Shown here: positions 9,347 through 30,500 of the stretch, piece by piece
Layout: each line of letters begins with the position of its first letter
Position numbering within the stretch: position 1 is the stretch's first letter
Source: a candidate division CPR3 bacterium 4484_211
GTDB taxonomy: Bacteria > Patescibacteriota > 4484-211
Length of the DNA: 49,231 nt
NCBI GenBank assembly: GCA_002084955.1
Contig: MZGJ01000001.1
Location: 1-49,231 of the forward strand
Reading direction: 5' to 3'
Made by a program: the position numbers and the translations under genes
Notes under the pieces: generated by a model
Seen by the model: the letters and a program-made list of their open reading frames with translations, nothing else
What the model was told of the DNA's origin: nothing
Databases searched by the model: none

Positions 9347-9422
9347 TGCGGGGAAGTGTAACGGTTTGCACACGAGGCTCATAACCTCGAGGTAGCGGGT
9401 TCAATTCCCGCCCCCGCAACCA
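9347..9422 (+). tRNA. tRNA with anticodon CAU (elongator Met or lysidine-type Ile2), CCA encoded
   Basis: Manual cloverleaf: acceptor TGCGGGG/CCCCGCA, D stem GTGT/GCAC, anticodon arm CGAGG-CTCATAA-CCTCG, T arm GCGGG-TTCAATT-CCCGC, discriminator A, CCA. 76 nt. Confidence 0.85.
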
Positions 9423-13769: not shown

Positions 13770-15779
13770 ATGCCGAAATTACCAGATCCATTTTCCATAA
13801 AACCGACGAAGGAGCAAGTAAAGATAACACGCGAAATCATAGACGCGATTTTTAAGGACCCCCAAGTTAAGTATGGTTTGCGGGAGTTTTCTAAATTAAA
13901 GATTGAAGAAGTTTTACAGGTTTTTGAAAAGGAGAAAGGCAAATTTTATACTCGTTGCTTTAAGCGTGACAAAGATATTTTAGTTTATAACAAAAACAAA
14001 AATACTAGTAAACCGGAAGAGATTATCCGTCAGCTATGGCTTATTCGTTTAATAAAGGATTATCGCTATCCTTTGGAAAGAATAGAACTAGAAAAAGATA
14101 TACGTTTTGGCCGAGAAGTGCACGCAAAAGCGGCTGATATCGTCATTTATCAGAAAGACAAAGTTACTCCTTATATTATTATTGAAGTAAAAAGCCCCAC
14201 TGAGGAGAAAGGAATTGATCAATTAAAAACTTATCTTAATGCCGAAGGCTCACCTATCGGTGTATGGTCAAACGGCAAAGAGCGTGTCATTTTATATCGT
14301 CCCTATCCAAAGCAGTTTGAGGATACACTTACTGAAATTCCAAGAGTAGATCAAACTGTCAATGATGTTTTAGAGGAAAGAAAGACGCTAAAACAACTTA
14401 CTTCTGATTATAACCTAATAGAACGAATTAAAATTTTAGAGGAACTTGTTCTTGCCAATGCTGGGGTTGACGTTTTTCAAGAAATTTTCAAGTTAATTTA
14501 CGCAAAACTTTATGATGAAAAGGAAGCAAAATCTCGGCTGGATCAAGAAGTATATTTCCGAAAATCAAAAGACCCTAAATTTACTTTTGATATTATTAAC
14601 CGTCTTTTCAAAGAATCAGTTGAAGAGTGGCCTGGTATCTTTAATCGCTATGACGAAATTTTGCTTTCCCCCGATCACTTGTCGGTTTGTGTGGGACAAC
14701 TACAAGATATAAAACTTCTTGACTCTAATCTAGAAGTGGTCGATGCCGCTTTTGAATATCTTTTGCCAGAGGTATCAAAAGGCAAAAAAGGTCAGTACTT
14801 CACACCTCGCCATGTGATTGACATGGCAGTAAAAATGTTAAACCCGCGTGATAAAGAATATATTATTGATCCTGCATCTGGTTCCGGCGGCTTTTTGATT
14901 CACGCTATGCAGTGGGTTTGGAGCTATGACTTAAAAGATGCGCTACACGAAAAACAGGTTGAGTACGCTCGCCGTTATCTTTACGGTATTGATTTTGACG
15001 ACAAGCCAGTAAAAATTTCGCGGGCATTAATGCTTATTGCCGGAGACGGCCGTTCGCATATTTTTAAACTCAATTCTCTTAATCCTAAAGAATGGCTGGG
15101 GTCTAATTCAGAAAAAGAAAAGGCTCGTGCCGAGCTACGCGAACGACTTCTTAAAACCGGCGATTATGAAAGAGATAGAGAAAACGAAGAAACCTTCCGC
15201 AACTTTGCTTTTGATGTTTTGTTAACTAATCCACCGTTTGCCGGGAAGATAAAGGAACAATTATTACTCCGAGAATATGAGTTAGTAAAAAATAAAAAAG
15301 GTAAGATTCCCAAGCAAGTTGGACGCGATCTTTTATTTATTGAACGGGCGTTGCAATTTATAAAACCGGGTGGAAGATTAGCAATAGTTCTTCCACAAGG
15401 AAAGTTGAATAATACTAATACAGAACATATTCGCCAATGGCTTTTTGATAAAGCGAGAATTCTGGCAGTGGTTGGGCTTCATGGAAATACATTTAAGCCC
15501 CACACCGGAACAAAAACATCAATTTTGTTCTTACAAAAATGGAATGACAATCCAAAACTTGGTCCATTAAACCCTTATCAAGAAGATTATCCGATTTTTA
15601 TGGCAGTTTCCAAAAAACCGGGCAAGGATAATTCCGGGGAATATGTTTATAAAAAAGACGAGAAAGGAAATTATATTTTGGATGAAAAAGGTCGGCGCAT
15701 TTTAGATCACGACCTCGATGAAATTGCCGAAGCATTTGTAAAATTCGCCAAAGAGCAAAAATTTAATTTTTGGGAATAA
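13770..15779 (+). CDS. N6-adenine DNA methyltransferase (HsdM-like, gamma class) fused to an N-terminal HSDR_N / PD-(D/E)xK-like domain
   Basis: The N-terminus has AADIVIYQKDKVTPYIIIEVKSP (D...E-V-K nuclease-fold motif of the HSDR_N family). AdoMet motif I is FTPRHVIDMAVKMLNP...IIDPASGSGGFL. The catalytic motif IV is LTNPPFAG. Confidence 0.85.
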   Translation: MPKLPDPFSIKPTKEQVKITREIIDAIFKDPQVKYGLREFSKLKIEEVLQVFEKEKGKFYTRCFKRDKDILVYNKNKNTSKPEEIIRQLWLIRLIKDYRYPLERIELEKDIRFGREVHAKAADIVIYQKDKVTPYIIIEVKSPTEEKGIDQLKTYLNAEGSPIGVWSNGKERVILYRPYPKQFEDTLTEIPRVDQTVNDVLEERKTLKQLTSDYNLIERIKILEELVLANAGVDVFQEIFKLIYAKLYDEKEAKSRLDQEVYFRKSKDPKFTFDIINRLFKESVEEWPGIFNRYDEILLSPDHLSVCVGQLQDIKLLDSNLEVVDAAFEYLLPEVSKGKKGQYFTPRHVIDMAVKMLNPRDKEYIIDPASGSGGFLIHAMQWVWSYDLKDALHEKQVEYARRYLYGIDFDDKPVKISRALMLIAGDGRSHIFKLNSLNPKEWLGSNSEKEKARAELRERLLKTGDYERDRENEETFRNFAFDVLLTNPPFAGKIKEQLLLREYELVKNKKGKIPKQVGRDLLFIERALQFIKPGGRLAIVLPQGKLNNTNTEHIRQWLFDKARILAVVGLHGNTFKPHTGTKTSILFLQKWNDNPKLGPLNPYQEDYPIFMAVSKKPGKDNSGEYVYKKDEKGNYILDEKGRRILDHDLDEIAEAFVKFAKEQKFNFWE

Positions 15780-15783
15780 AAAT

Positions 15784-17238
15784 ATGACAGATCAAGAAAT
15801 TCTACAAATATTTTTAGACACCCAGGAATGGCAGAGATTTGAATGTAAAAGAGCTGCCATTCAGCCATCAAAATTATTAGAAACGGTTGTTGCTTTTGCA
15901 AATACTGACGGTGGTTTTATAGTTATAGGATTGGAAGACCCATCTAAAGCGCGAGAAGAAGAGAGATTGATCGGAATTAGTGAAAATCCTAACAATGTTT
16001 CTGAGTTTTTAAAGCTCATTGAGAAAGAAATTGATCCTCCTTTAAAATCCTGGAGTAAATTTGAACTTGATATTTGCAATATTCATAAAGCTAAAGATGT
16101 TTTATTAGTAATTAATATAAGAAAAAGCAATGATGTTCATTCGTTAAAGAAAGGGGACACTTATGTCAGAAAAGGAAATCAAAACGTTAAGATTACTGCA
16201 AATGAGATTATTCGACTAAAATATGAAAAAGGATCTATAAAATTTGAGAGTGAGTTGTCTAAAATACAAACTCTTGATGAGATAGATAGAGATCTTTTTG
16301 GTGCTTACAAAAGCGATACGCAAAGTGAGGGAGAAGATGATTGGCAGTTTCTGAAAGACAACGGGTTAGCTATAAAACAAGACAATATTTTTGTACTTAC
16401 CAAAGCTGGGGTTTTGCTTTTTCATAAAAATCCTTCTGTTGCTCTTGGGAGCAAATGTGGCGTTAAAATATCTCACTATTACGGGACGAAACCTACTTAT
16501 TCCGAGAAACCTAATTTTGTTCGGCGGCCCTTTACCATAGAAGGCCCGCTTTTGCATCAGATAGAAAAGACAATTAAATATTTCCGGGATATTGTAAAAA
16601 ATTCTCCGCCAAAATTAAGCGGAGCTGCCTTTAGTCCTTCTGTACTTATTCCTGAATGGGCCTTCCAGGAGGCTATAACAAATGCTGTTATACATAGAAA
16701 TTATTTTATACAAGATGATATTCAAGTTAGATTTTTTGATGATCGAATAGAAATTGAGAGCCCAGGCACTTATCCTGGTCATATCACCGTTAGTAACATC
16801 CGTTCAGAAAGATTCGCAAGAAATCCTCTCATTTTAAGAACTCTTAATCGTTTTCAAACAGCGCCTAATTTAGACATTGGGGAAGGAGTAGATCGTATGT
16901 TTAAGATTATGAGAGAACGTAATTTGTATGAACCGCTATATTTTCCTCCGTCAATTAGACCCAATTCCGTTCTGCTAATTCTTTTTAATCTCCAAAGGAT
17001 AGAGTATTGGGATACTGTAAGCAAATATTTAGATAAGCATTATCGTATTACTAATAGTGAGGCCCGCAGAATTACAGGTATTAAAGATACTTTAAAAATG
17101 TCCCGTCTTCTAAAATCTTGGGTTGATAAAGGACTATTACAAAAGGTTGGCGAAAAAGCAAAAAAGGTGGTTTATTATATAAAACCAGGACAAGAAATGC
17201 CTAGTCGTTTATTTTCAAAGGGGGTTGAAAATAAATAA
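15784..17238 (+). CDS. AlbA_2 (Schlafen-like divergent AAA) plus HATPase_c_4 domain protein
   Basis: The N-terminus FECKRAA...VVAFANTDGGFIVIG is the AlbA_2 signature. The central EAITNAVIHRNY...RIEIESPG is the HATPase_c_4 signature. The C-terminus is winged-helix-like. The gene is inserted between the methylase and S genes. Confidence 0.7.
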   Translation: MTDQEILQIFLDTQEWQRFECKRAAIQPSKLLETVVAFANTDGGFIVIGLEDPSKAREEERLIGISENPNNVSEFLKLIEKEIDPPLKSWSKFELDICNIHKAKDVLLVINIRKSNDVHSLKKGDTYVRKGNQNVKITANEIIRLKYEKGSIKFESELSKIQTLDEIDRDLFGAYKSDTQSEGEDDWQFLKDNGLAIKQDNIFVLTKAGVLLFHKNPSVALGSKCGVKISHYYGTKPTYSEKPNFVRRPFTIEGPLLHQIEKTIKYFRDIVKNSPPKLSGAAFSPSVLIPEWAFQEAITNAVIHRNYFIQDDIQVRFFDDRIEIESPGTYPGHITVSNIRSERFARNPLILRTLNRFQTAPNLDIGEGVDRMFKIMRERNLYEPLYFPPSIRPNSVLLILFNLQRIEYWDTVSKYLDKHYRITNSEARRITGIKDTLKMSRLLKSWVDKGLLQKVGEKAKKVVYYIKPGQEMPSRLFSKGVENK

Positions 17239-17294
17239 AAAGTTGTCGAATTTACGTTTAAAATCAAGCATTTTTTCAATTTTCATTTTCATCT

Positions 17295-18656
17295 ATGGTT
17301 ACTTACTCCATTATTCAAAAATCACAACTTGAAGGCGGCCTGCGGCTGGATGCGGAATATTATCAGCCGGAGTATTTGAATAATGCAAAAATTATTGCAA
17401 CGTTACCATATGACGTGAAAAAGTTTGCCGACCTCGCTTCTTATATTACCAATGGTCATACGCCGTTGCATGCGGATTTATCTATCGGAGATGTTTATTT
17501 TCTAACCGCTGAAAATGTTTTTGATTTTTTTATAGATTATGGAACGGCAAAAAGAATTACTAAATTGGCGAGTAAAACAGAATTAAAAAGAACGATTTTA
17601 TCAGATAATGATTTATTGATAACAATAAAGGGGCGAGTTGGGAATGCCGCTATCGTTTATAAACTACAACAGGATACAAATATAAATCAGGATGTAGCAA
17701 GAGTTGTAGTAAAAAAGGGAATAAGCCCATTCTATCTATCTGCATTTTTGAATTCTAAATTTGGGAAATTACAAGTAGAAAGAATTGCGACTAATCAAAT
17801 CAATCCTTTCTTGGGTCTCGGTAATCTAAAAGAACTACTTGTTCCTATTATTGAAATAGACAAACAAGAAGAAATTGAGAAATTAATTAAAAAAGGATTG
17901 GATGAATTGGAAAATTCAATCTCTCTCTACTCTCAGGCCGAAAATTTGCTTTTGGAAGAGTTGGGATTAAAAGATTTTCAGGTTGAAGATGACCTATCTT
18001 ATATCGTCAATCTTTCCGAAATAAAATCTGCTCATCGCGCCGACGCCGAATATTTTCAGCCGAAATATGAAAAATTAATTGAAAAAATTAAGAAATACGG
18101 CTCGGTTCCCTTGTTAGATTTGGTCCAAAATGTGCCGGCGAGATTTAATCCGAAATCCCAGCCAACAAAACTTTTTCGATATATAGAACTTTCAAACATT
18201 ACTTCTTCTGTTGGGACAATAGATGGATTTTCAGAAGTATCAGGAGATGAAGCGCCAAGCAGAGCAAAAAGAGTGTTGAAAGCTAACGATGTTATTTTTT
18301 CCAGCGTTGAGGGTTCATTAGGAAAAGTGGCTCTAGCTGGAAAAGAACAGGAAGAATATCTGGCATCAAATGGTTTTTTTCAATTCAGAAGCAAAAACAT
18401 TCTGCCGGAAGTTTTGTTGGTTTTAGCAAAGAGTTTTGTTTTGCAAATGCAGTTTGAAAAAGAAACAACAGGTACTATTCTTACGGCAGTACCAAAAGAA
18501 GCTGTAAAAAATATTATTGTTCCAAAAATAGAGAAAACTATCCAGCAAAAAATCGCCGAATTAGTTCGAAAATCCCACGAAGCCCGCTTAAAAGCAAAAC
18601 AGCTTTTAAAAGAAGCAAAAAATAAGGTCGAAAATTTAATTGAAACAAAGTTATAA
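17295..18656 (+). CDS. hsdS: Restriction-modification specificity subunit (HsdS-type, two target-recognition domains)
   Basis: There is an internal duplication: RLDAEYYQPEY near the N-terminus and HRADAEYFQPKY mid-protein. Two coiled conserved spacers are present (EIEKLIKKGLDELE, IQQKIAELVRKSHEARLKAKQLL). Confidence 0.85.
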   Translation: MVTYSIIQKSQLEGGLRLDAEYYQPEYLNNAKIIATLPYDVKKFADLASYITNGHTPLHADLSIGDVYFLTAENVFDFFIDYGTAKRITKLASKTELKRTILSDNDLLITIKGRVGNAAIVYKLQQDTNINQDVARVVVKKGISPFYLSAFLNSKFGKLQVERIATNQINPFLGLGNLKELLVPIIEIDKQEEIEKLIKKGLDELENSISLYSQAENLLLEELGLKDFQVEDDLSYIVNLSEIKSAHRADAEYFQPKYEKLIEKIKKYGSVPLLDLVQNVPARFNPKSQPTKLFRYIELSNITSSVGTIDGFSEVSGDEAPSRAKRVLKANDVIFSSVEGSLGKVALAGKEQEEYLASNGFFQFRSKNILPEVLLVLAKSFVLQMQFEKETTGTILTAVPKEAVKNIIVPKIEKTIQQKIAELVRKSHEARLKAKQLLKEAKNKVENLIETKL

Positions 18657-18661
18657 ATACT

Positions 18662-18883
18662 ATGGCAAAAGTAGGCAGAAGGCGCAAAAGAAAAACTTCA
18701 ACAAGACAACGTTTTCTAAAAAAGAAAGGGTTAAAAAAGGTACCGAGAGGAAAAGAAATTGATCATAAAGTACCTTTATCCGAAGGAGGAAGCGATAGTT
18801 TGAGAAATTTAAGGTTGATTAAAAAGAAGACGCACAAGCAAAAGACAAAACGAGAAGCTCGCAGGCGCGCTAGAAGAAGATAA
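18662..18883 (+). CDS. Mini HNH endonuclease-like protein with highly basic tails
   Basis: 73 aa. EIDHKVPLSEGGSDSLRNLRLIKKKTHKQK fits the D-H...N...H HNH core. Both termini are Arg/Lys-rich. Confidence 0.65.
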   Translation: MAKVGRRRKRKTSTRQRFLKKKGLKKVPRGKEIDHKVPLSEGGSDSLRNLRLIKKKTHKQKTKREARRRARRR

Positions 18884-19395
18884 TTTTACGAATAAACCAC
18901 TTTCTGAAAAATTTGTAAAAAGAGCAATTATTAAATGGCTTGATAATCATCCGGCAGTCCTTGCTCGCTCGACCGCAGACACACCACTACAGGCCACACC
19001 CGCAAGACATTGAAACTGCAGACTTCCAACACGAAATAGAAACAATACCCCGTCCGCAACCGGACATACTAAAGTACTACAGGAAACTTCTCTCCCCTAC
19101 TCAGCCCTGAGTTTTCCCCCAAAGACCGAACACCTTTATTACTCGTTAGCGAGATGCCCACACTGCCGCGAGGACTGCCAACACGGAGAAAACTGCCGCC
19201 GAACAAAATATTGCTTCTTCATTCGTTTTGGCGAACAAAAATTTAAAATAACGCCACATAACCATACCCTATATTCGCGACAGCTCTCTTTTCACCTTAA
19301 TAGGACACCTCTTCCCAAACTTAAGAAACCTAATCATCAAGCTTCCTTCTACAGGATTAGCTCCCCAAAGTTCTATAACTTATGTCTTAAATTTC

Positions 19396-20709
19396 TCAAG
19401 CGTTCTTTCTTGTTTCTCCAACTCTTTCTATCTGGGCGCCTAAAGACTTCAAATTCTCCAAAAAATTCGGGTGGGCTCGATAGATAGTGTCAATATTTTT
19501 TAACTCCGACTCCCCCTCCGCCATCATGGCCGCCATCATCAAGGCCACTGTTGCCCTAATAATATATGGACATTCCAACTGACCAGCTCTAAGTACTGCC
19601 GGTCCCAAAACAATAATTCGGTGCGGATCACAGATTTCAATTTTAGCTCCCATTTTAACCAGCTCCGAAACCCAAAATAACCCTCCCTCGTAAACCTTAT
19701 TCCAAAATCTCACCGTCCCTCGGGTTTTCAAAGATAAAGCAATCGTTAGAGGCAAAAGGTCAGCCGGGAAATAAGGCCAGGGAGCCGCCTCTATGCGCGG
19801 AATATAGTTGGGAGTAAAAGGCTTTTCCGGCACAAACCTTTGACCTTCTTCCACCACGGCTGTCGTTCCTTTATACTTAATTTCCACACCCAGCTTGGCA
19901 AACTGCTTAGTAATAAGCGGGAAGAATTGGGGAACTGCATCCTTTACCTCTATCCTTCCTCCGGTGGCAGCCCCCAAAGCCAAGTAAGTAGCAATTTCAT
20001 GATGATCAGACGAAACTCTAAACTCAGTGCCATGCAGCCGCCCAACCCCTCTTATCACAAGCCTGCTCGACCCAATACCGCTGATCTGCGCCCCCATGGA
20101 GTTAAGCATAGAACATAAATCTTGAACATGGGGCTCACTGGCCGCATTATTAAGAACCGTCTCGCCCTCGGCCAAAACCGCAGCCATAACAACATTTTCT
20201 GTCGCCGTTACGCTCATGTAGTCTGGCCAGAGCTCAGCACCTTTAAATTTCTTTCTAATCTTTAGCCAGACCCGCGAATCTTTCCTGCCAACTTCCATTC
20301 CCATCTCCCGCAGCATGCCAATATGCGGATCAATCTCTCGGATCCCCAAAGTACACCCTCCAATAGAGGAGCCTATAGTTAACTTCTTAAACCTTTGTAA
20401 AAGCGGAGAAATAAGAAGAAGACTAGCCCTCATCCCCAAAGGCAACCTCCCGTCAAAATTGTCCAAGGAGAGGGAGCTATTTTGGATCGAAATTCTACCA
20501 GCCTGCTTATCCCACTCGGTTTTTGCTCCCAACTCTTCTAAAACTTGCACTATTTTCTGCACATCAGTTAAGTCGGGAACATTGTGAAGAATCACAGGCT
20601 CGTTTGTTAAAAGACTAGCACAAAGAGCGGGCAAAACCGCATTTTTATTGCCCGAAGGGGTAATAATCCCACCCAGCTTTATTCCGCCCTGAATTCTAAT
20701 ATCTGACAT
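19396..20709 (-). CDS. murA: UDP-N-acetylglucosamine 1-carboxyvinyltransferase
   Basis: 437 aa with full-length MurA-like organisation: PSGNKNAVLP near the N-terminus and an active-site loop GGCTLGIREIDPH. Confidence 0.9.
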   Translation of the reverse strand: MSDIRIQGGIKLGGIITPSGNKNAVLPALCASLLTNEPVILHNVPDLTDVQKIVQVLEELGAKTEWDKQAGRISIQNSSLSLDNFDGRLPLGMRASLLLISPLLQRFKKLTIGSSIGGCTLGIREIDPHIGMLREMGMEVGRKDSRVWLKIRKKFKGAELWPDYMSVTATENVVMAAVLAEGETVLNNAASEPHVQDLCSMLNSMGAQISGIGSSRLVIRGVGRLHGTEFRVSSDHHEIATYLALGAATGGRIEVKDAVPQFFPLITKQFAKLGVEIKYKGTTAVVEEGQRFVPEKPFTPNYIPRIEAAPWPYFPADLLPLTIALSLKTRGTVRFWNKVYEGGLFWVSELVKMGAKIEICDPHRIIVLGPAVLRAGQLECPYIIRATVALMMAAMMAEGESELKNIDTIYRAHPNFLENLKSLGAQIERVGETRKNA

Positions 20710-20774
20710 AGAAAAAACCGGCCATTCCTGCCCAACCGGTACTTTTTAAACTGTACTTCCCCGCAAAAAAGCAA

Positions 20775-21263
20775 TCAATTTTCCCGCATCAGCCGCACTC
20801 TATCTCCTATTGAGATGCCCCTTTTTTCAACCTCTCCCGCATTTACCTCCAAAACATAAGCGGCCTCGGCGCCGGGGGCATAACTGGCGCAAGGTTCTAA
20901 TTTGCACGGCGGCAGATCCTCACAAATATCTGCCACCCTCAAATCCTCACCAATCCAAATAATATCTAAAGGAATCAGCGTATTCTTCATCCAAAAACTA
21001 TAGACACCCGGCCTATTAAACACAAAGAGCATCCCCTCGTCCCGGCCTAATTCTTCCCGATACATTAATCCTCTGGAACGCTCCCGCGCCGTTATTGCCA
21101 AGCTCACCCTAAAACAGCCACCTCCAAAACAAACCCGATTAGGCGCCTCTCCCTCTTTATTTAGAATTTTATTAGATAAATTCTGTCGCCAACAGAAGAA
21201 CAAAAAAGCGGCCAGCGCCAATAATAAAGCGAATACCACAAGGACAGTTTTGAGTTTAATCAT
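20775..21263 (-). CDS. DUF192 family protein (secreted or anchored)
   Basis: It has an N-terminal hydrophobic segment. GLMYREELGRDEGMLFVF...FWMKNTLIPLDIIWI matches the DUF192/COG1430 pattern. Confidence 0.65.
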   Translation of the reverse strand: MIKLKTVLVVFALLLALAAFLFFCWRQNLSNKILNKEGEAPNRVCFGGGCFRVSLAITARERSRGLMYREELGRDEGMLFVFNRPGVYSFWMKNTLIPLDIIWIGEDLRVADICEDLPPCKLEPCASYAPGAEAAYVLEVNAGEVEKRGISIGDRVRLMREN

Positions 21264-21371
21264 CCGCCTTCCTTTGCATAACCTCCAATCTCTTGGCAGG
21301 CATGTCCAGGACCGAATCAGGAAAAATCCATCTTATAAACTTATAAAGAAGCAGTCATCAAAAGAATGAAT

Positions 21372-21446
21372 TGGTGGGCCAGGGTGGGGTCGAACCACCT
21401 GCTTTCATCTTATAAGGATGACACTCTACCGTTGAGTTACTGGCCC
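21372..21446 (-). tRNA. tRNA-Ile (UAU), CCA encoded
   Basis: Minus-strand cloverleaf: acceptor GGGCCAG/CTGGCCC, D arm ACTC-AACGGTA-GAGT, anticodon arm TCATC-CTTATAA-GATGA (anticodon TAT), variable AAGCA, T arm GGTGG-TTCGACC-CCACC, discriminator A, CCA. 75 nt. Confidence 0.8.
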
Positions 21447-21578
21447 TCAACAAAGCCTGAACAAGACAAGTTCCATACAGCTTTCCTTGTCGGCCAAATT
21501 GCGCCCTATTCCCCATTTGGCACGAGCCTGCATTTCGCAGGTCATTTTAAAGCCGGCTATTACAAAAACACCAATCAA

Positions 21579-21908
21579 CTACCTCACCTTAGTCCCTGGC
21601 GAAACTTTATCACAAGGCATAACCAGCACCGCCCGCCCATCTACATCCGCCGCCAAGAGCATTCCCTGCGAATCCAGGCCAGCCAGCCTCTTTGGTTGGA
21701 GATTAACAACAACTACTACCTGCAACCCAATAAGAGCCTCCTTTGTATACCACAGCTTAATCCCAGCAATAAGAATACGCTCCCCCAATTCTCCCAAATC
21801 AACCGATATTTTGTACAATTTATCATATCCCTCCACATCCTCTACTTTCTTTATCTCCCCAACCCTTAAATCCAACTTTTGAAAACCTGAAAAAGGAACT
21901 GTAACCAT
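21579..21908 (-). CDS. tRNA-binding domain protein (CsaA/Trbp111-like)
   Basis: LDLRVGEIKKVEDVEG.DKLYKISVDLGE...VVVVVNLQPKRLAGLDSQGMLLAA is the OB-fold tRNA_bind signature. I place the start at the Met of MVTVPF, which is preceded by GAAGGAAA. The track start (21929) abuts tRNA-Cys. Confidence 0.75.
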   Translation of the reverse strand: MVTVPFSGFQKLDLRVGEIKKVEDVEGYDKLYKISVDLGELGERILIAGIKLWYTKEALIGLQVVVVVNLQPKRLAGLDSQGMLLAADVDGRAVLVMPCDKVSPGTKVR

Positions 21909-21931
21909 TTTCCTTCTACATCTACGCAAAA

Positions 21932-22006
21932 TGGAGGCCTGGGAGGGAATCGAACCCTCGCATAGCGGTTTTGCAGACCGCCGCCTTACCGCTTGGCTAC
22001 CAGGCC
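21932..22006 (-). tRNA. tRNA-Cys (GCA), CCA encoded
   Basis: Acceptor GGCCTGG/CCAGGCC, anticodon arm GCGGT-CTGCAAA-ACCGC, T arm GAGGG-TTCGATT-CCCTC, discriminator U (typical for Cys), CCA. 75 nt. Confidence 0.9.
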
Positions 22007-22104
22007 TTTTGCCAGATGATGCCGAGGCAGATTTCTACCAAGATTCTACTCCGATGTGTATCAGGAATCTGGCTGCCGGGCTCTGCCCAAAGTATACCAC
22101 AACT

Positions 22105-22131
22105 AAAAACCCCGCACCTTGGAGTGCGGGG
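22105..22131 (-). terminator. Intrinsic terminator (minus strand)
   Basis: On the minus strand: CCCCGCAC-tccaag-GTGCGGGG, followed by TTTTT. Confidence 0.6.
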
Positions 22132-22299
22132 CTATGCTCGCTCCCAGATCCAAGTGCTCAGTCAAGCTAGAGCTCGATTTAAAAATTAAGCTCTAGTAAC
22201 CAAACACTGGGAACTGGAAGCGAGATTTATTGTTTCTAGTCTTATAGTCTTACTAATTCGCTGTAGACAACTCTGTTGAAATCTCTGTCTTTACTTGAT
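22105..22299 (-). ncRNA. Candidate ~195-nt small RNA of unknown family
   Basis: It is bounded by a perfect consensus promoter (22306..22334) and the terminator at 22105..22131. I found no ATG in the predicted transcript, and the GTG/TTG frames stop within a few codons. It contains an ~86-nt imperfect hairpin (22138..22223). Confidence 0.45.
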
Positions 22300-22305
22300 G
22301 CGGCA

Positions 22306-22334
22306 ATTATAACAAGCCATACCATATCTGTCAA
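22306..22334 (-). promoter_or_regulatory. Perfect consensus sigma70 promoter (TTGACA-17-TATAAT) on the minus strand
   Basis: The minus strand reads gcccacTTGACAgatatggtatggcttgtTATAATtgccg. It lies 158 nt downstream of the lon stop and has no ORF downstream. Confidence 0.6.
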
Positions 22335-22491
22335 GTGGGCGGCGACTATCTAGTTCGGGAACACAACAAATGCAAAAAGCAGAAAGTTTCAATTATTACC
22401 TTTCTCCAAAACACACGAGGAAGCCGCGGGGCGGGATTGCATCAGCAAGAATTTAGCCGGATGAAATATTACCTAATTTATGGAGACATCT

Positions 22492-24909
22492 TTACGGAGA
22501 CACTAAAGCCTCCCGGAGAACTTCATCTACATTCTCAACCAAAATAAAACCCAAATCCTTCCTAATATGCTTTTCGATTTTTTCCAAATCACCCTTATTT
22601 TTTTGGGGCAAAATTACCTTTTTGATTCCCGCCGCTCTGGCCGCCAGAACTTTCTGCTTCACCCCGCCTACAGGGAGCACCAACCCCGAAAGGGTAATTT
22701 CTCCCGTCATGGCCACATCATTTTTAACCTTCCGGCCTGTCATCAATGAAGCCAAAGCACAGACCATAGCTACACCCGCCGAAGGACCGTCCTTAGGTAT
22801 GGCCCCCGCCGGCACATGAAGATGCAGATCATTCTTTTCAAAAAACTTCTTGTCAATTTTTAGCTCCTTGGCCCGAGATCTAATTAACGACAAGGCTGTA
22901 CTGGCCGATTCCTTCATCACATCGCCTAAATTTCCGGTAAGAGTTAATTTTTTCCCTCCGGGCATTTTTCTGGCCTCTATGAATAGAATATCCCCCCCCG
23001 AAGAAGTAACCGCCAACCCGGTCGCCACACCCACAGCAGACAACCGTCTTTTAACTTCCGGAAAGGCTTTCTGCGGACCTAAATACCGCGGTACTTTACC
23101 GGCGGTAATACGCTCCCCTTTTGTTTTTTTCTGCGCCACTTTTTTGGCTACCTTGCGGACAATTTTGGCAATTTCTCTTTCCAAATTACGCACCCCGGCT
23201 TCGCGCGTATACTCCAAGATTATCCTTTCTAAAGCCTTTCTCTCAAAAACAACCTGTTTTTCATTTAATCCATGTTCCTTAATTTGTCGAGGAAGCAGAA
23301 ATTTCTCGGCAATAAATATTTTTTCTTCAGCTGTGTAGCCGGGAATCTCAATTATCTCCATCCGGTCCAGCAGTGCCGGATGCATAGTCTCCAAAACATT
23401 GGCCGTGGCAATAAACATCACCTTAGAAAGATCAAAGGCCAAATCTAGATAGTGATCCCGAAAAGTACTGTTTTGCTCTGGATCTAGAACCTCAAGCAGA
23501 GCCGAAGAGGGATCACCGCGAAAATCCGCCCCCACCTTATCAATTTCATCAAGCATAAAGACGGGATTATTTGTCTCAGCTCGTTTGATACCCTGAATTA
23601 TCCTGCCCGGCAAAGCCCCAACATAAGTCCGGCGATGACCTCTAATTTCTGCCTCGTCGCGAATCCCCCCCAAAGAAATTCTGACAAACTTGCGTCCCAA
23701 AGCACGGGCAATGGATTTCCCCAGCGAGGTCTTCCCTACCCCAGGAGGCCCTACAAAACACAGGATAGGGGATTTCAAATCTTTTCTAAGTTTCCTAACC
23801 GCCAAGTATTCAATTAAACGCTCCTTGATCTCCTTAAGATCGTAATGATCCTCATCAAGCACCTTTTGAGCCCTCCTAAGGCTAAGATTGTCCTTAGTAG
23901 AAACATTCCAAGGGAGATCCAACACCCAGTCCAAATAGGTTCTCACCACCTGATACTCTCCAGACATCGGATGCATAACCTCCAGGCGCTTTATCTGAAT
24001 ATCCACTTCTTTCTTGGCCTCTGGAGGAAGACCCACCTTCTTCAGACGCTTCTTTATCTCCTTAATCTCGGCCGCCAACGGATTTTCTTCCCCTAATTCT
24101 TTCTGAATGGCCTTCAGCCTCTGCCTTAAAAAAACCTCTCTCTGCGTTTTATCAAATTCCTTCCTCACACTAGACTGTATCTTTCCCCCCAGTTTAATAA
24201 ACTCCAACTCGCGAGACAGCAACCGCATGAGTAACTCAAATTTCTCTTTGCCTCCACTAGTTTCCAGAAGCTGCTGCTGCTCAGCCGGCTTGAGCCTAAT
24301 TAAGGTGGCCACCGTATAGAGAAGTTTTAGCGGTCTCTCCTCCAATTGCTCCAACAAAACACCCATCTCTTTGGGCAAAAAAGCGGAGGCGCTAATTACC
24401 TTCTGCGCCGTGTTAATTAAAGACTTACACAAGGTCTCTGTTTTTTGATTAAAGGGAATTTTTTCCTCTTTTAATTCCACACTGGCCACCAGAATATCCC
24501 GATAATACCGCCAGTCCAAAGCACGAATTCTCGATATCCCCTGCAGGGCCACCATCTGCGAAATTTTAGAAATGGGAATAACTTTGTGGATTAAACAGGC
24601 AGTTCCAACTTGAGCTTCGGGCCATGAACCTTCCCTCTGCCCTCCACTCCCCTTGGAGCGGCCGCTCTTTGTCTCCTGCAAAAATGTCCCGATAAAATGG
24701 GAGGTCTCCATAGCTTTCCTTACGGCCAGTTGCGATTTGGCACTTTCAACAATTACCGGGATAACCGTCTGCGGGTAAATAACCGTCCCCTTTAGAGGTA
24801 AAACAATAAGCTCCCTGGGAACATCCTTCCCCTGCACGGTCTCGTTTTCCTCAATAGAGAAAACACCTTCTTCCAATGGTCCTTTTTTTCTACTATCAAA
24901 AAGAGACAT
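22492..24909 (-). CDS. lon: ATP-dependent Lon protease
   Basis: 805 aa. It has a LON N-domain, Walker A GPPGVGKTS, Walker B FMLDEIDK, and a protease domain with PKDGPSAGVAM (catalytic Ser). Confidence 0.95.
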   Translation of the reverse strand: MSLFDSRKKGPLEEGVFSIEENETVQGKDVPRELIVLPLKGTVIYPQTVIPVIVESAKSQLAVRKAMETSHFIGTFLQETKSGRSKGSGGQREGSWPEAQVGTACLIHKVIPISKISQMVALQGISRIRALDWRYYRDILVASVELKEEKIPFNQKTETLCKSLINTAQKVISASAFLPKEMGVLLEQLEERPLKLLYTVATLIRLKPAEQQQLLETSGGKEKFELLMRLLSRELEFIKLGGKIQSSVRKEFDKTQREVFLRQRLKAIQKELGEENPLAAEIKEIKKRLKKVGLPPEAKKEVDIQIKRLEVMHPMSGEYQVVRTYLDWVLDLPWNVSTKDNLSLRRAQKVLDEDHYDLKEIKERLIEYLAVRKLRKDLKSPILCFVGPPGVGKTSLGKSIARALGRKFVRISLGGIRDEAEIRGHRRTYVGALPGRIIQGIKRAETNNPVFMLDEIDKVGADFRGDPSSALLEVLDPEQNSTFRDHYLDLAFDLSKVMFIATANVLETMHPALLDRMEIIEIPGYTAEEKIFIAEKFLLPRQIKEHGLNEKQVVFERKALERIILEYTREAGVRNLEREIAKIVRKVAKKVAQKKTKGERITAGKVPRYLGPQKAFPEVKRRLSAVGVATGLAVTSSGGDILFIEARKMPGGKKLTLTGNLGDVMKESASTALSLIRSRAKELKIDKKFFEKNDLHLHVPAGAIPKDGPSAGVAMVCALASLMTGRKVKNDVAMTGEITLSGLVLPVGGVKQKVLAARAAGIKKVILPQKNKGDLEKIEKHIRKDLGFILVENVDEVLREALVSP

Positions 24910-24919
24910 CGTTAATCAA

Positions 24920-24933
24920 CTGACAGCTGTCAG
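24920..24933. promoter_or_regulatory. Perfect 14-bp palindrome CTGACAGCTGTCAG upstream of lon (possible operator)
   Basis: It ends 10 nt from the lon ATG (24909) on the minus strand. It is perfectly self-complementary. Confidence 0.35.
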
Positions 24934-25128
24934 CCAATAAAATGCTTAACAGTCATTTAGATTTCAAAATTGACTTAATCTTTATAATTCCAAATTTGCC
25001 CCCTTTAGCAAACCCCTGCCTCATTCGCCAAGAGATCGCCAAGACAAAAACATGCCGCAAAATCAACTTGCAAGAGCTTCTTAGTCCACTTACATAATAG
25101 CACGACCGTCAAACAACTCGTTGAACTG

Positions 25129-25701
25129 CTAAAGGCCAAGGTTAAGAATTAAAGCCAATCCAAAAAGGCCGACCCAGACCCTCAAGTCCCAATTATAAAC
25201 CTTCAGTCCATCCATAAAACCAAAAGGCAGCAAATTAAAAAGAGCCAGGCGGGCGTTAATAGCCCCCCCATAAGAAAGAAACAGGCGGGGGCCCCAAAGC
25301 ACGGCGGCCAGGTAGAACAAGAGAGACAAAACTATATTGCTTATCGGCCCGATGGCGGCAATTTTCCCATTTTCTTCATTGGTGGTTATACCCGAAATCA
25401 CCACTGCCCCCGGCAGGGCAAAAATAAATCCCGAGGTCCAGGCGGTGAATATTGTCAGCAGCAAACCCAAATCAAATGAACGGAACTCTGCCCAGCAATT
25501 AAAACGCTGTGCCAAAAACTTATGCGCCAGCTCGTGAACAACAAAAGAAACGCCCACGGTAACCCCAGAAAACAAAAAGGAGGAAAATACCCCCAAGCCC
25601 GGCAGGCTTCTGGTAAAAGCTAACGCAAAGGAAAAAGAAAGCACCGCCCAAGCCTTAATTAGTTGTTGAACCTCTTCTTCAGAAAAATGCATCAATATCA
25701 A
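25129..25701 (-). CDS. Small membrane zinc metalloprotease, M50 (site-2 protease) family
   Basis: It has HELAHKF (HExxH) within a TM segment and FNLLPFGFMDG (NxxPxxxxDG). The protein is polytopic and hydrophobic. Confidence 0.7.
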   Translation of the reverse strand: MILMHFSEEEVQQLIKAWAVLSFSFALAFTRSLPGLGVFSSFLFSGVTVGVSFVVHELAHKFLAQRFNCWAEFRSFDLGLLLTIFTAWTSGFIFALPGAVVISGITTNEENGKIAAIGPISNIVLSLLFYLAAVLWGPRLFLSYGGAINARLALFNLLPFGFMDGLKVYNWDLRVWVGLFGLALILNLGL

Positions 25702-25766
25702 TCTGCAAAAATTAACCTCTTGGAATAGCTTTTGTTAATTATGTTATCTCCCCTGCGCCTAGACTG

Positions 25767-26777
25767 CTACGCAGGAATAAAAGCTAACTTCGCCCCGCAC
25801 TTTGGACATCTTCTCCCTTCCATGTAATTTTTTATTGAATACCCAAGCCGCTCCACCACTTCCTCTCCACACTGCGGACAATAGCTGCTTTCATAATCAC
25901 TATGGGGAACATTGCCCAGATAGACATAGTTTAGACCCAATTTCCTGCCAATTTCGTAAGCCGCCTTTAGAGTTTTAAGCGGCGTTGGATAAGAATCCTC
26001 CATTTTATACTGAGGGTAAAAGCGAGAGATATGCCAGGGCATATCCCGGGAAATACCCGCCAAAAATTTGGCAATTTGACTTAATTCTTTTTCCGAGTCG
26101 TTTTCCCCGGGAACCACCAAAGTCGTCACCTCCACCCAAATGCCTTTTTCGTGCATCAGCTTAATAGAATCCAGTACCGGCTGCAACCGCGCCCCGCAAA
26201 TTTTACGATAGTATTCATCGGCAAAGGCTTTAAGATCAATATTGGCAGCATCAATTACCCCAGCCATTTTTTCAATAGTCTCCGGCGTTTGAAAACCATT
26301 GGTGACAAAAATGTTTTTTAACCCCTGCTTTTGAGCCAATTGGGCTGTATCATAGGCAAACTCAAAAAAAATTGTCGGTTCGGTGTAGGTATAGGCAATA
26401 GATCTACATCCTGCCCGCAAGGCAGATTTAACCACCTGATCAGGAGACATGCTCTCACCAATAATCTGTCCCCTTGGTCCTTTACTTATCTGGGAAATCT
26501 GCCAGTTTTGACAAAAAGCACACCGAAAATTACACCCCGCCGTGGCAATAGAAAAACTTTTTGTCCCAGGCAAAAAATGAAACAAGGGTTTCTTTTCTAT
26601 TGGGTCCACATTAGCAGAGATCACCCTGCCATAAACCAACGAGTAAAGCACCCCATCGCAATTCTCCCTCACCGCACAAACTCCCCTCTTTCCCTTGGCA
26701 ATAGTACAGCGATGCGCACATAAATTGCACCGAACCTCATCATTTTCTAATTTGTCGTAAAGCATCGCCTCGTACAT
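25767..26777 (-). CDS. AmmeMemoRadiSam-system-type radical SAM enzyme
   Basis: It has an N-terminal Cys cluster (CNLCAHRC...GKRGVCAVR), a radical SAM motif (CNFRCAFCQNW) and a C-terminal zinc ribbon (CPQCG...CPKCG). This architecture is typical of that family. Confidence 0.7.
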   Translation of the reverse strand: MYEAMLYDKLENDEVRCNLCAHRCTIAKGKRGVCAVRENCDGVLYSLVYGRVISANVDPIEKKPLFHFLPGTKSFSIATAGCNFRCAFCQNWQISQISKGPRGQIIGESMSPDQVVKSALRAGCRSIAYTYTEPTIFFEFAYDTAQLAQKQGLKNIFVTNGFQTPETIEKMAGVIDAANIDLKAFADEYYRKICGARLQPVLDSIKLMHEKGIWVEVTTLVVPGENDSEKELSQIAKFLAGISRDMPWHISRFYPQYKMEDSYPTPLKTLKAAYEIGRKLGLNYVYLGNVPHSDYESSYCPQCGEEVVERLGYSIKNYMEGRRCPKCGAKLAFIPA

Positions 26778-26814
26778 AAAAAAAACAGCAACCAGAAAAA
26801 AGTACTCCTACCCA

Positions 26815-27483
26815 TCACTCATTACCCGCCGCTCTCGCCACCCTCTGCGCCCGCACAATGTATCTATTCACATCCAATCCCAGCGGCCAGCAGGTCATCA
26901 AGGTTAAAACTTCCTCTTCGGTTGGGGCCAGATACTCCAGGGCCTTTTTAGAAACCACCTTGCCCTCCACAACCTGATAGTGGTAACTCTGCCCCTGATA
27001 CACCACCACAATCCTATCGCCGGTCGTCAATTTGTGCAAATTATTAAATACCCCCTTATATTCGCCGGTGTCACCCCCGGGGATCTGCGAGTGCCCGAAG
27101 AGAAAAATATTCCCCTTCTCTCCAGGAAGAGCCCCGTCCACAATAACATTAGTAAACTCACGGTGTTTAAAATGGGCCACCCCTTGGGTCACCCGCCAGA
27201 GATACTCCCGCGGATTTCCACCATCAACATTGGCGATTACCGGCACATTAACTTTAATCTTAGGTATCACCAGCGAAAAATCTTTAGAAACAGGAATTAT
27301 GTCCGGTTGACTTACCTCTGCTTCCTCTTTTATCCCCAAAATAGATGTTGCCTTCTCATAACTCTCATATACTCTAGAAGGCTGCCTAAGCCAAAAGACA
27401 GCAGAATAAGAAACTAACAGAACGATAAAAATGACCAGACTAATTTTAAGTAATTTCACAGCGGGAAATAAGGCCAGGGGCAA
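26815..27483 (-). CDS. Sortase (transpeptidase)
   Basis: It has an N-terminal TM anchor, a His in IFLFGHS, the catalytic Cys in LTLMTCWP, and a conserved Arg in IVRAQR. Confidence 0.8.
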   Translation of the reverse strand: MPLALFPAVKLLKISLVIFIVLLVSYSAVFWLRQPSRVYESYEKATSILGIKEEAEVSQPDIIPVSKDFSLVIPKIKVNVPVIANVDGGNPREYLWRVTQGVAHFKHREFTNVIVDGALPGEKGNIFLFGHSQIPGGDTGEYKGVFNNLHKLTTGDRIVVVYQGQSYHYQVVEGKVVSKKALEYLAPTEEEVLTLMTCWPLGLDVNRYIVRAQRVARAAGNE

Positions 27484-27575
27484 AACAACTGCCTGCCCCC
27501 GCCCATGTCAGGCGCTTACGACCCATCCTCACCGCCATTATACCAAAGGCATTGGGAGAACTAAACAGATGATAA

Positions 27576-30500
27576 TCAGAAAAATTTACGGCGTAGAGCA
27601 AAAACTGGAGAAATAAAGTAGAGCAGCGCCTGAAAGTAAAAGCCCAGCGCTTCCCTCAGAGAAACTCCGGTAACCGGAAGCTCCGCCTCCGGCGTTGCCG
27701 AAACCTGATTGGCATTAGTTGACTCATTCCCCCGCTCGTCTACTGACCGCAATGTGTAGTAATAGGTGGTCCCGTTTACCAAACCGGTGTCGGTATACGA
27801 AGCAACCGAAGAATCGGCGCTTGATTTCACCAAATCGCCCAAACTCCCTTCCGTGGTACTGCGGTAGATATTAACATGATCAAAATCCGCCTGTGAAGGA
27901 TTGGTCCAACTCAATTCCACCTGGGTGCTTCCAGAAACGGCTGTGATATCCGTCGGCGCATCAGGCGGCGTGGTATCAGCACCGCCGGTGGTCAGAGCAA
28001 ACTGCGTAAAGTGGTTAACCGTAAAGGTAATCTGATTGCTGTCCGTGTCCACGGTGAAACTGGTAATTCCCTGCCAAAGAGAAGAGGTGGTGTCATAGTA
28101 AGAGGCCCCAATCTGATCCTCGGTAATTCCCAATTCATCCAACATTCCCTCAGTGTAAGGAATAGTAATGGTCACATCGGAGTTAAAAGTGGAGTTAACC
28201 GGGGTGCCGTCGGCCAAAGCCCGCAAATCATACCCAAAGGCCAAGGGGCGGGCGTTCTCCTGTTTGGCAAGCTGTTCTGTGGGGGTGGCGACTACGGTAA
28301 CCGTCCCCGACTGAGCAATAGCCCCTGCAGGAATGCTGATTACCGCTCCATTCTCCAAAGTAATCACCGCCGGATTGGTGGCCGAAAAACTACGAGAGGT
28401 CGCCGGAGGAATGGTAAAATCAGTCTCCGCTAGAGCAAGGTCTTGAGTTTGCTGTGCCGAGTCCACCGTCACAATATATTCCGGACTGCGGTAGAACGTG
28501 CCATCTTCCTTTTTGTAATCAGCGCCTACATGCCAGACATCCCCTTTGGTCACATTGAGAGAATAATCTCCTGAGAAACTCATCACTTCGGAATGACCTC
28601 CCTGGTCCGACCAGGCCCAAACAAAAGCCGAACTCTTAGCGCCGTCAATAAAAACCGACCCCTTAATCACCGCATCCGACGCTTTATACCTCAAGGTAAC
28701 CTTTTTGGTTTCTCCCTTGGCTACAGTAACGCGCTGAATATCCGGATTCATGTAGCCGATGCTTGCCGGCGCACCCGATCCCACTCCGTAGGTACCGGCA
28801 GGCACCTGCAGAACAATCTTCCCTCCAGCATCCACAATATCGCCAGTATGAATCCCCTTGCCCATATCTTCACTGCCCTCGCCTTCTTTCCCCGCATGGG
28901 TATCAGCAAAAGCAAAAACTCCATCCAAGGGCTCACCATTGGGATCCAGCACGGTAACCTCTATGGCGGCATCGGCGCTTAATAAAGTAAAGTTTCTTTC
29001 CACCGTTTTACCAGAAGCAACCACCGTCTTGGAATCGTCCGGGGGCCTCATCATATAGCCTGATGAGGGATCAACAAAAACCCCCAGGAACCAGCTGGTA
29101 CCCCCTACCACATCCAAAACATACCTTCCCGTATCCTGATCCACAAAAGTATGCTTCATTCCCCCGGTGGGAGAATGTCCAAAAACTTCCACGTGCACCC
29201 CTTTTACGAGGCGGCCATTCTCATCAACAATTTTTCCTGTAATGCGGGCGTCGTTTGCCTTGACCACAACATCAACACTCTTGGTCTCATTGTCCTTTAC
29301 GACAACCGTTTTCCCGGCCATAGCCGAGTACTGCGAACCCGGCGGCAAGTGAACCATCACTGTCCAGGTCCCCGCCGGCACGGCTAAACTAAAACTTCCG
29401 TTGGAAATCTCAGTTCCCGGACCAGGCATCGGAGGATCTCCTGCTCCTTCCATAGCTTCCGCCCACCCAAAAAGATCGGTCATAACCTGCCCGCTCTCAT
29501 CCTTGACCAAACCGGTTATCACGGCGGTGGCACTGACCAGCTTAAATTCAACACCGCTCACCGTCTGATCCTTAGAAAGCGATACTTCTCTCGGAGGCCC
29601 GCCCATATAGACATACCCCTCCTCCGGCCGCGGCATAATCTCCCATTCCCCCGGCGACACCAACAGGTCAAACTTGCCCCCCGCCTCAGAAGTCGTCTCT
29701 GTCCAGCCGCTTCCCCCTGGACTCCAGGCCTCCACTTTAATGCCCTCAATTCCATTTCCTGCCTTATCAAGCACCCTTCCCAAAACATGCTCATTCTTTT
29801 TAACCAGGGTAATCGTCCCCAGGTCCTTAGTCTCACCCTCACCCACCCTAAAGGGATCCATCTGGGGCACGGCGTATGATTGGTCATCTAAATGCACACC
29901 CAGCTTATACTTTCCGGCCGGAACATTAACCGTAAAAACTCCCTGGTCGTTTAGGCCCCCCCCTGACCCCATGCCGTCCGAACCCCTCACATCTACGCCC
30001 CCGCGGGCGGCCGGCGAGCCATCGGGATAAAGAACCTGACCAATAACCCTGGCAGTAGCCTTAACCACCGTAAAATTAACCTTGGCCGATTCTTCAGTGT
30101 CATCGTCAGCAAAAGAAACAATGCGCGGAGGGTTAGTATAGGCCCAATTCACCGGCAATTGTGTATTTGTATCCTTATCCCAAGGGGCATTAAGCATTAG
30201 CTCCCACTCACCGCCGGTTAAACCCAGCTCATAAGTACCATCAGCCTCCATCACCGTGGATAACCAATTACGCCCGCCCTTTTGATTGGCTCCCACCTCC
30301 ACATTGGTCGGGACAGTTCCGTCGCCAAATTTCACCTTTCCGGTAACCACTTTAGACGGCAACCTCACCGCGATCTCACCCATATCGTACACCCCGCCGC
30401 TATAGCTGATCGCCGGAGTCTCGGCGGGATTTACATAGCCGGAACCCGGAGAAAGCCAGACTTCCAGCAGGTAATCCCCTGCCTCCACACCGACAAAAGA

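Follow-up and report, generated by a model that had tools for sequence, protein, structure and literature searches.

A conserved hairpin RNA behind lon in a candidate division CPR3 bacterium: a probable new RNA family of Patescibacteria with many members upstream of rho

The RNA gene behind lon

The DNA analyzed here, referred to as the window, comprises 49,231 nucleotides of the candidate division CPR3 bacterium 4484_211 (contig MZGJ01000001.1, positions 1 to 49,231, assembly GCA_002084955.1); on its minus strand, between lon and a tRNA-Cys gene, lies a predicted small RNA gene of about 195 nt. An earlier reading of the sequence, hereafter the original prediction, had located it with lon on one side and a block of tRNA-Cys, a tRNA-binding protein and tRNA-Ile on the other, and this location was confirmed (Table 1). 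The window's own genome (G000) has 826,021 bases in 39 contigs and is estimated to be 99.85% complete. Its class, for which the label WWE3 is used here, contains 13 genomes (2 of them so titled); the window's order makes up the whole class and contains the same 13 genomes.

The promoter of the gene, P1, reached a score of 12 of 12 with TTGACA, a 17-nt spacer and TATAAT, plus a TG extension, and was the sole perfect TTGACA-17-TATAAT in the window, where it had originally been called the best promoter match. With a spacer of 16 to 18 nt, one such promoter was seen in the 49,231 bases when 0.01 was expected from 100 shuffles, and only seven were present genome-wide, the window's included. The other six were found on contigs C7, C26 (two), C28, C32 and C34; the one at C7:113 was followed by two DnaA-box-like words. 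Judged from the promoter spacing alone, transcription would start near 22299. At the opposite end, the terminator at 22133..22108 consisted of 11 pairs (7 G-C) and a 4-nt loop with a T-run down to 22105, and it ranked top among the terminator-like sites in 15000..30000, in agreement with the strong terminator called originally. No ATG was present in the predicted 195-nt transcript. Its 5' part was overlapped only by two short TTG-started open reading frames (ORFs) of 30 and 33 aa, and this 75-nt part was not conserved in relatives. The description of the transcript as lacking an ATG and being ORF-free held.

The 195-nt RNA (22299..22105) folded at -76.2 kcal/mol, compared with -45.5 +/- 4.7 kcal/mol for 200 shuffled sequences (z = -6.51), none of which folded as well. 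In this fold, a long hairpin (22224..22137) was distinct from the hairpin of the terminator, and most of the 5' part was open. The two arms named in the original prediction did pair within the long hairpin, in which 22224..22214 formed a basal stem with 22147..22137 and the apex was variable. Only two interruptions were found in it, a 1x1 C.U loop and a 2-nt bulge; C22209, opposite U22152, was the invariant unpaired C described below. The promoter, the terminator, the fold and the conservation of the hairpin support the original call of a discrete, non-coding, structured RNA gene.

The TATAAG box in the window had the position that the -10 element occupies in relatives with a short leader; possibly it serves as a second, weak promoter or as the site of a protein. 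A shorter form of about 130 nt is a possible product if this box drives transcription or if the leader is processed. Among 22 sequencing runs sharing the stretch or part of it, a contig of one DNA run spanned 22142..22339, and three RNA runs (one only guessed to be RNA), each with 0.04 of the stretch's words, gave cover at tRNA-Cys only.

Table 1. Features of the RNA locus and of the second motif (window coordinates unless a contig or locus is named)
Feature	Position	Strand	Remark or basis
lon	22492..24909	-	upstream of the RNA gene
-35 hexamer TTGACA of promoter P1	22329..22334	-	exact consensus
Extended -10 (TGT TATAAT) of P1	22306..22314	-	TATAAT itself at 22311..22306
Predicted primary transcript, ~195 nt	22105..22299	-	promoter and terminator positions
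Degenerate DnaA-box-like TTGTCTACA	22262..22270	-	2 mismatches to TTATCCACA, 1 to TTGTCCACA
TATAAG box	22241..22246	-	24 nt past the start of the DnaA-like box
Conserved hairpin (motif 1), 88 nt	22137..22224	-	fold, covariance model, covariation
5' core CCCAGUGUUUGG	22200..22211	-	invariant columns in A1, A3 and A4
3' core CUGAGCACUUGG	22150..22161	-	pairs with the 5' core; holds the tandem U.G/G.U step
Separate intrinsic terminator	22105..22133	-	stem CCCCGCAC/GUGCGGGG lengthened to 11 pairs, with a U-run behind it
tRNA-Cys	22006..21932	-	downstream of the RNA gene
tRNA_bind-domain protein	21929..21579	-	domain match
tRNA-Ile(UAU)	21446..21372	-	tRNA scan
Motif 2 loci	L074, L076, L080, L081, L087, L089, L092, L095, L097, L117, L120		
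Motif 2 in G000	C38, L124:291-337	-	directly upstream of rho

Conservation of the hairpin and comparison with catalogued RNAs

When 60 relatives were searched by BLAST, only the hairpin part (query 127-203) was matched, in the same family and order. Conservation in relatives was thus confined to the hairpin and did not extend to the 75-nt 5' part, a point absent from the original prediction; the functional unit in relatives was only about 95-100 nt. Covariance models R1, R2 and R3 were built successively, and alignments A1 (9 sequences), A3 (13) and A4 (34) were examined. The window sequence was inside the seed alignments of all three models, so its own scores (R1 84.5 bits, E = 5e-21; R2 79.8 bits; R3 72.6 bits) are matches by construction, and the independent support for the family comes from model matches in genomes outside the seeds. 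Three groups were compared: WWE3, the small second class of family f30 and the large third class of genome G123.

In A1, 17 of the 33 consensus pairs showed compensatory changes. With R1, a single locus was detected in each of 11 WWE3 genomes out of 13; the two without a match were G005 (95% complete) and G008 (76%). Sense scores in this class were 75-100 bits versus 25-44 bits for antisense, and the RNA was assigned to its strand because of this difference and of the conserved G.U pairs. A phylum sample of 151 genomes added family f30 with a match in 3/3 genomes, which are the only members of its class. In A3, 96% of the cells were paired and 13 of 25 pairs had changed on both sides. None of 500 shuffles attained the covariation score of A3, and slid controls paired in 32-50% only. 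The invariant part of A3 read CC plus an unpaired C, the helix AGUG/CACU, then U.G, U-A, U.G, G.U and G-C. In the sequences inspected (A1, A3 and A4), the unpaired C faced U, A or C, never G.

R2 retrieved a divergent member in G123, from another family of the phylum; its core (AGAGUCUGG / CUGGACUCU) was a compensatory variant in which the unpaired C and the U.G/G.U step were retained. A pattern scan of metagenome contigs yielded 37 loci, 32 of them distinct; 24 folded with the full basal stem, and the 8 that did not were excluded. Most of these loci belonged to a second subfamily, B, which is mostly linked to rho and is marked by one more internal loop that is conserved (GGUUCGCGUAC ... ACUUACUGG), the window-type copies being subfamily A. 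No match to Rfam was obtained at E <= 0.1 for the 10 subfamily B loci scanned, and the hairpin pattern had 0 matches in a scan of viral contigs. Across both subfamilies (A4), 95.4% of the cells were paired and compensatory changes occurred in 17 of 25 pairs; again none of 500 shuffles matched the covariation score, and slid controls were 32-50% paired. The pairs C-G, G-C, U.G and G-C were invariant in A4, and the tandem step was conserved as U.G in 34/34 sequences and G.U in 32/34.

With R3, matches were obtained in 11 genomes of the phylum sample of 151; one of the 11, G105, was not counted as a member, its match being a both-strand palindrome. In the large class of G123, R3 matched 77 of 151 sampled genomes and 17 of 21 families. 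Weak model matches were left out of membership (G077, G148, G152, a second match in G088, and G105); those in G088 and G105 had about equal scores on both strands. The conservation of the hairpin in relatives, which the original prediction had named as a check, was strongly borne out by the R1 matches in WWE3, the covariation in A3 and A4 and the large-class matches. The signature of the family is well supported and consists of a covarying basal stem, (U/C)CC, an always-unpaired C, a 10-bp helix with U.G/G.U and a variable apex, the length of which ranged from 22 nt to more than 100 nt across members.

Two copies of the motif in tandem, head to tail and with compensatory differences between them, were seen at L072:1298-1479 (-) and L091:3419-3597 (-), and two tandem copies were also present in the large-class genomes G165, G195, G219, G232, G235, G238, G241, G270, G274 and G280. 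The hairpin at L060:1501-1588 (G088:C23) was an almost perfect palindrome that contained the internal repeat AGCGUCCAG and had R2 scores of 41.9 and 32.6 bits on the two strands; it is probably a different element.

The window RNA belonged to no Rfam 15 family. At gathering scores, Rfam 15 matched only five tRNAs in the window, and a permissive scan of 21900..22600 gave nothing real, the best non-tRNA match being a plant microRNA model with 30 bits against a threshold of 101.7 bits. Hence the suggestion of a novel RNA was sustained, the hairpin being outside every Rfam 15 family. RNase P RNA and tmRNA had been discounted originally and were indeed unmatched at the locus; in G000, RNase P RNA was found on contig C1 (96.4 bits) and tmRNA was detected by ARAGORN. 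The same was true of the RNA of the signal recognition particle (SRP), since neither RF00169 nor RF01854 matched at the locus. A 5S rRNA was also considered and rejected, as a normal 5S gene occurred elsewhere in 5/5 hairpin-carrying relatives; RF00001 was unmatched in G000, whose rRNA operon is largely unassembled. A Y RNA / Rsr system was rejected on finding no PF05731 (Ro/TROVE) in the genome and no Y-RNA family match at E <= 10. A plain intrinsic terminator was rejected because the loci have their own promoter (15/15), the core is conserved in three classes and a separate terminator follows the hairpin.

No SRP RNA, small or large, was found in G000, and RF00169 was matched in 0/31 genomes of relatives. 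The Ffh M domain (PF02978) had no match in G000; for an SRP54-type GTPase, PF00448 gave 15 bits at best, no open-frame DTAGR-type motif was present, and tblastn with the SRP54-type fragment of a relative returned P-loop fragments only. SecY was found in G000 by the same tool. Because no Ffh M domain or SRP54-type GTPase was detected, an SRP role would leave the RNA without a protein partner. As an observation on the genome, no SRP system (Ffh, FtsY, SRP RNA) was detected in G000 by three independent methods, which agreed. PF00448 was matched in 1/46 relatives and 1/401 sampled phylum genomes, and the sole match was on a 2.7-kb contig of G010. Absence of SRP across the phylum calls for caution because the accessible part of PMC8321541 lists Ffh-like proteins from two Patescibacteria.

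In the literature searched, which was available in part, the window RNA was undescribed, though unnamed motifs in the supplementary lists of PMC5737381 and PMC8040213 may match it. No account of it was found in the parts available of PMC9297842, PMC10768705, PMC8321541 and bioRxiv 10.1101/2022.03.25.485537.

Gene neighbors, promoters and DnaA boxes

The ORF downstream of the motif was Rho in 10/10 cases tested, tblastn placed rho downstream in 16 loci, and rho followed the motif in 12/12 of the best large-class loci. This placement, the usual one for the family, was also absent from the original prediction. In the large class, the motif was upstream of the Rho RNA-binding domain, on the same contig and strand, in 69 of the 77 RNA-positive genomes, at a distance of 296-1401 nt (median 448). 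Of the remaining eight, five had the two on different contigs, one had them on opposite strands 7 kb apart, and two had no Rho match. The genes upstream of the rho-linked motif (n = 10) were RadA-like in seven cases, Clp ATPases in two and Lon in one (on a subfamily-A contig); the RadA-like call is a reading of the KaiC-type ATPase, zinc ribbon and Lon-like end, and is to be taken as provisional.

A second conserved hairpin, motif 2, was found between motif 1 and rho in 11 distinct subfamily B loci. It has the form GGGRUCGGU-loop UGGGGCAGU-GCCGAUCCC with a 9-bp covarying stem, usually followed by a U-run, and its 9-nt loop (UGGGGCAGU) was almost invariant. No Rfam match was obtained for motif 2 in the two such loci scanned (L087 and L089). 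The G000 copy of motif 2 differs by two stem changes, both compensatory, and stands behind a TTGACA-17-TATAAA promoter of its own.

The motif was not directly upstream of rho in WWE3 and f30. In G000, rho was located on contig C38 and the RNA on C19, behind lon. The upstream gene in WWE3 was lon in 4/4 relatives tested as well as in the window; the remaining six WWE3 relatives had long co-oriented ORFs upstream, whose identity was left out of the lon count. A Fur-family gene was upstream in f30 (3/3). A conserved block, ATAGTGTGCGGGAAT, upstream in family f3 was considered as another RNA and rejected, as it is at or near the 3' end of a Lon-domain ORF. The simplest history would be that WWE3 split an RNA unit standing before rho, with motif 1 moving to the 3' side of lon and motif 2 staying in place.

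An exact TTGACA -35 element, with a total promoter score of 10-12 of 12, was present in 15/15 loci of WWE3, f30 and G123. Subfamily B promoters scored at least 10 of 12 in 14/17 loci. Two layouts were seen: f3 and subfamily B have a leader of about 20 nt, whereas f1 (the window's family), f2 and f30 have one of about 65-90 nt. By eye, the WWE3 and f30 copies ended either in a T-run adjoining the base of the hairpin or at a terminator separate from it. A terminator-like tail was found in only 5/27 subfamily B loci by a rough rule that undercounts, part of the U-run being drawn into the fold; for this reason the WWE3 terminators were judged by eye.

DnaA boxes were frequent beside the hairpin. 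The box TTATCCACA, with up to one mismatch, in the same orientation and no more than 100 nt upstream of the hairpin, occurred in 9/15 loci, when about 0.02 per locus would be expected (303 sites per 826 kb, both strands). Eight of the nine were in WWE3, corresponding to 8 of the 10 WWE3 genomes other than the window's. In f3, the box began 14-15 nt before the -35 element; in f1 and f2, it was in the transcribed leader, 23-24 nt before a TATAAG/TATAGG box. The form TTGTCCACA, from which the window's word differs less, is the one found beside dnaA. In G000, dnaA and flanking clusters of the same boxes were on contig C30, indicating that the RNA locus of the window is not the replication origin. 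TATAGG boxes, related to the TATAAG box of the window, were seen by eye in other loci (L102, L112-L122 and L070-L100 of subfamily B and L044-L046 of f30), where one directly precedes the -35 and another the -10 (ACTATAGGnTTGACA ... TTATAGGGTATAAT), at a spacing of about 23-24 bp. The putative rho promoters downstream lacked them, also by eye. These boxes may be the sites of a regulator.

Proposed role and competing explanations

We consider it very probable that this is a real RNA gene and a new, uncatalogued RNA family of the Candidate Phyla Radiation (CPR)/Patescibacteria. It is well supported that the window copy is a WWE3-class, free-standing, relocated member whose functional part is 22224..22137. 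The link of the family to rho is, by a slight preference, functional and not merely syntenic. Our overall reading, which we hold tentatively, places the window RNA, as a free-standing member, in a new family of protein-binding RNAs tied to Rho. A protein would recognize the core, which is mostly double-stranded with a fixed unpaired C, because this core is invariant while the apex varies so widely in length. The partner would most likely be Rho or another part of the termination machinery, since the family is linked to rho almost obligatorily. Where the motif precedes rho, it could act in cis on the transcript that runs into the gene and so feed back on rho expression. In WWE3, an abundant stand-alone RNA could act in trans by binding or titrating the same factor, and its synthesis would be tied to DnaA and to the state of replication through the DnaA box by the promoter. 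Action of the window copy in trans on the termination machinery is possible, though on balance doubtful. A dedicated Rho-recognition RNA that would limit rho in cis and, in WWE3, act as a trans decoy titrating Rho by replication status is a speculative extension and improbable as a whole.

RNA-based control of Rho takes several forms, including autoregulation of rho by leader attenuation, the small RNA (sRNA) SraL and RNA elements that antagonize Rho. Like rho leader elements, the motif was right before rho in 69/77 large-class carriers, suggesting feedback. Unlike them, it showed no likeness to them in sequence or structure, the WWE3 copy is not at rho, and Rho binding is a prediction here.

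Several observations weigh against a role tied to Rho. Rho was detected in 143 of 151 large-class genomes, RNA present or not, and therefore no presence/absence correlation with the RNA exists. An apparent second promoter was seen by eye between the motif and rho in most rho-linked loci, which weakens a simple leader model. For the window locus the rho link fails because the constant neighbors are lon in WWE3 and the Fur-family gene in f30. Synteny with rho can persist without function, and binding of Rho to the hairpin is predicted from gene linkage; the primary site of Rho binds single-stranded, pyrimidine-rich (C-rich) RNA, not a helix. Coupling to replication is weakened by the window's own DnaA-like box, which is degenerate (2 mismatches), and by the finding of a DnaA box in 0/17 subfamily B (rho-linked) loci. 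Further, the discrete transcript is itself predicted, the available RNA runs not containing this organism, and counts of genomes and loci overstate the support since kin are not independent.

A trans-acting, base-pairing sRNA, in which the leader or the apical loop would pair with mRNAs while the hairpin stabilizes or terminates the transcript, is unlikely but deserves to be weighed. The promoter, hairpin and U-tail are the classic anatomy of such RNAs, and subfamily B has, by eye, a conserved short single-stranded 5' stretch before the stem; the sRNA SraL reportedly pairs with the rho leader in Salmonella. However, the leader and the apex were the least conserved parts in WWE3, where the paired core was invariant. 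Outside the locus itself, the genome had no conserved site complementary to the core strands, the only other exact 12-mer being inside an ORF. When duplexes of the 76-nt leader with 587 5' regions were scored crudely, rho ranked 32nd, which gave no signal.

Somewhat less probable again is a structural element for transcript ends or processing, that is, a terminator or insulator of the lon unit or of the unit before rho, or an RNase III-type site, with no dedicated partner. The motif was always behind a long co-oriented gene (lon in WWE3, a RadA-like gene or Clp ATPase gene in the rho-linked class), the hairpin base met the U-tract directly in short-leader relatives and so can terminate, and helices of at least 25 bp are RNase III substrates. 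However, a terminator needs no consensus promoter, and one was present in 15/15 loci and in 14/17 rho-linked loci. Nor would a terminator require a 12+12-nt core that stays invariant in three classes, its unpaired C included, and the two tandem copies in some genomes also speak against it.

The original prediction had suggested a 6S-like RNA, which would bind the RNA polymerase holoenzyme by mimicry of an open promoter; this is now very improbable and largely refuted by the anatomy of the RNA. The strong promoter and the mostly double-stranded, probably abundant RNA resemble 6S RNA (RF00013), and the 6S slot of G000 appears empty because RF00013 is unmatched genome-wide. The control, by comparison, matched in 7/14 reference genomes. 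However, RF00013 had no match at E <= 10 over 21900..22600 or in the whole of G000, the hairpin has only a 1x1 loop and no large central bubble, and the 5' and 3' transcript ends do not pair with each other in WWE3, the first 75 nt of the window RNA being unpaired with its 3' end. Known 6S RNAs are 150-200 nt long versus about 90-100 nt for the conserved unit here, which is about half the size; in the relatives the functional unit was put at about 95-100 nt.

A DNA-level element, an imperfect palindrome by a DnaA box with a role in replication or as a cruciform bound by protein, and not as RNA, is more improbable still. It is suggested by the inverted repeat and by the DnaA box adjoining most WWE3 loci. 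Against it, dnaA and its box clusters were on another contig, subfamily B lacked the box, the arms differed as G.U pairs require on one strand only, and the orientation of promoter and terminator matched that strand.

A divergent 4.5S (SRP) RNA or its relic can be regarded as refuted, unless an unrecognizable Ffh analogue exists: the single hairpin of about 100 nt with internal loops, the single copy per genome and the strong promoter are like those of 4.5S RNA (RF00169), and no Rfam SRP RNA was found in G000 or 31 relatives, yet conservation falls in the middle of the stem, while the apex varies in length and sequence and lacks a GNRA loop, the reverse of SRP RNA, RF00169 and RF01854 did not match, and no Ffh or FtsY was found although SecY was present.

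The protein-binding RNA tied to Rho that we favor may also be compared with orphan structured RNAs that have their own terminator, namely the drum, skipping-rope and DUF3800-I motifs (Weinberg et al. 2017, PMC5737381, as far as that source was available). Like these, the window RNA has conserved sequence, covariation and a terminator behind it, and in G000 it is not a 5' untranslated region. Unlike them, it differs in sequence and fold, is confined to CPR classes and has a near-obligate partner, rho, in most carriers.

CPR/Patescibacteria account for a large share of bacterial diversity, and almost no regulatory RNAs were found described for them. For TM7x, the available part of bioRxiv 10.1101/2022.03.25.485537 speaks of 'no currently validated small RNAs'. 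The family raises the question of how transcription termination is controlled in bacteria whose genomes are tiny and whose regulators are few, which could be addressed in the few cultivable members. The WWE3 copy, free-standing and with a DnaA box, offers a natural comparison with the rho-linked form. A Rho decoy, if true, would turn the sequestering logic of 6S RNA from RNA polymerase to a termination factor, and would do so in bacteria without a small RNA described in the literature searched, so far as it was available.

Some minor observations concern the tRNA genes of the window. An extended -10-like element, TGGTATACT, was found at 22091..22099 (-), right after the terminator of the RNA and about 85 nt before tRNA-Cys; because it precedes the gene, tRNA-Cys probably has a promoter of its own. 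A tRNA at 9347..9419 (+) scored 62.2 bits with Rfam, yet was absent from the ARAGORN list. The tRNA-Ile has the anticodon UAU, an uncommon bacterial route to reading AUA, and the same tRNA-Ile was downstream of the hairpin in 6/9 loci of relatives.

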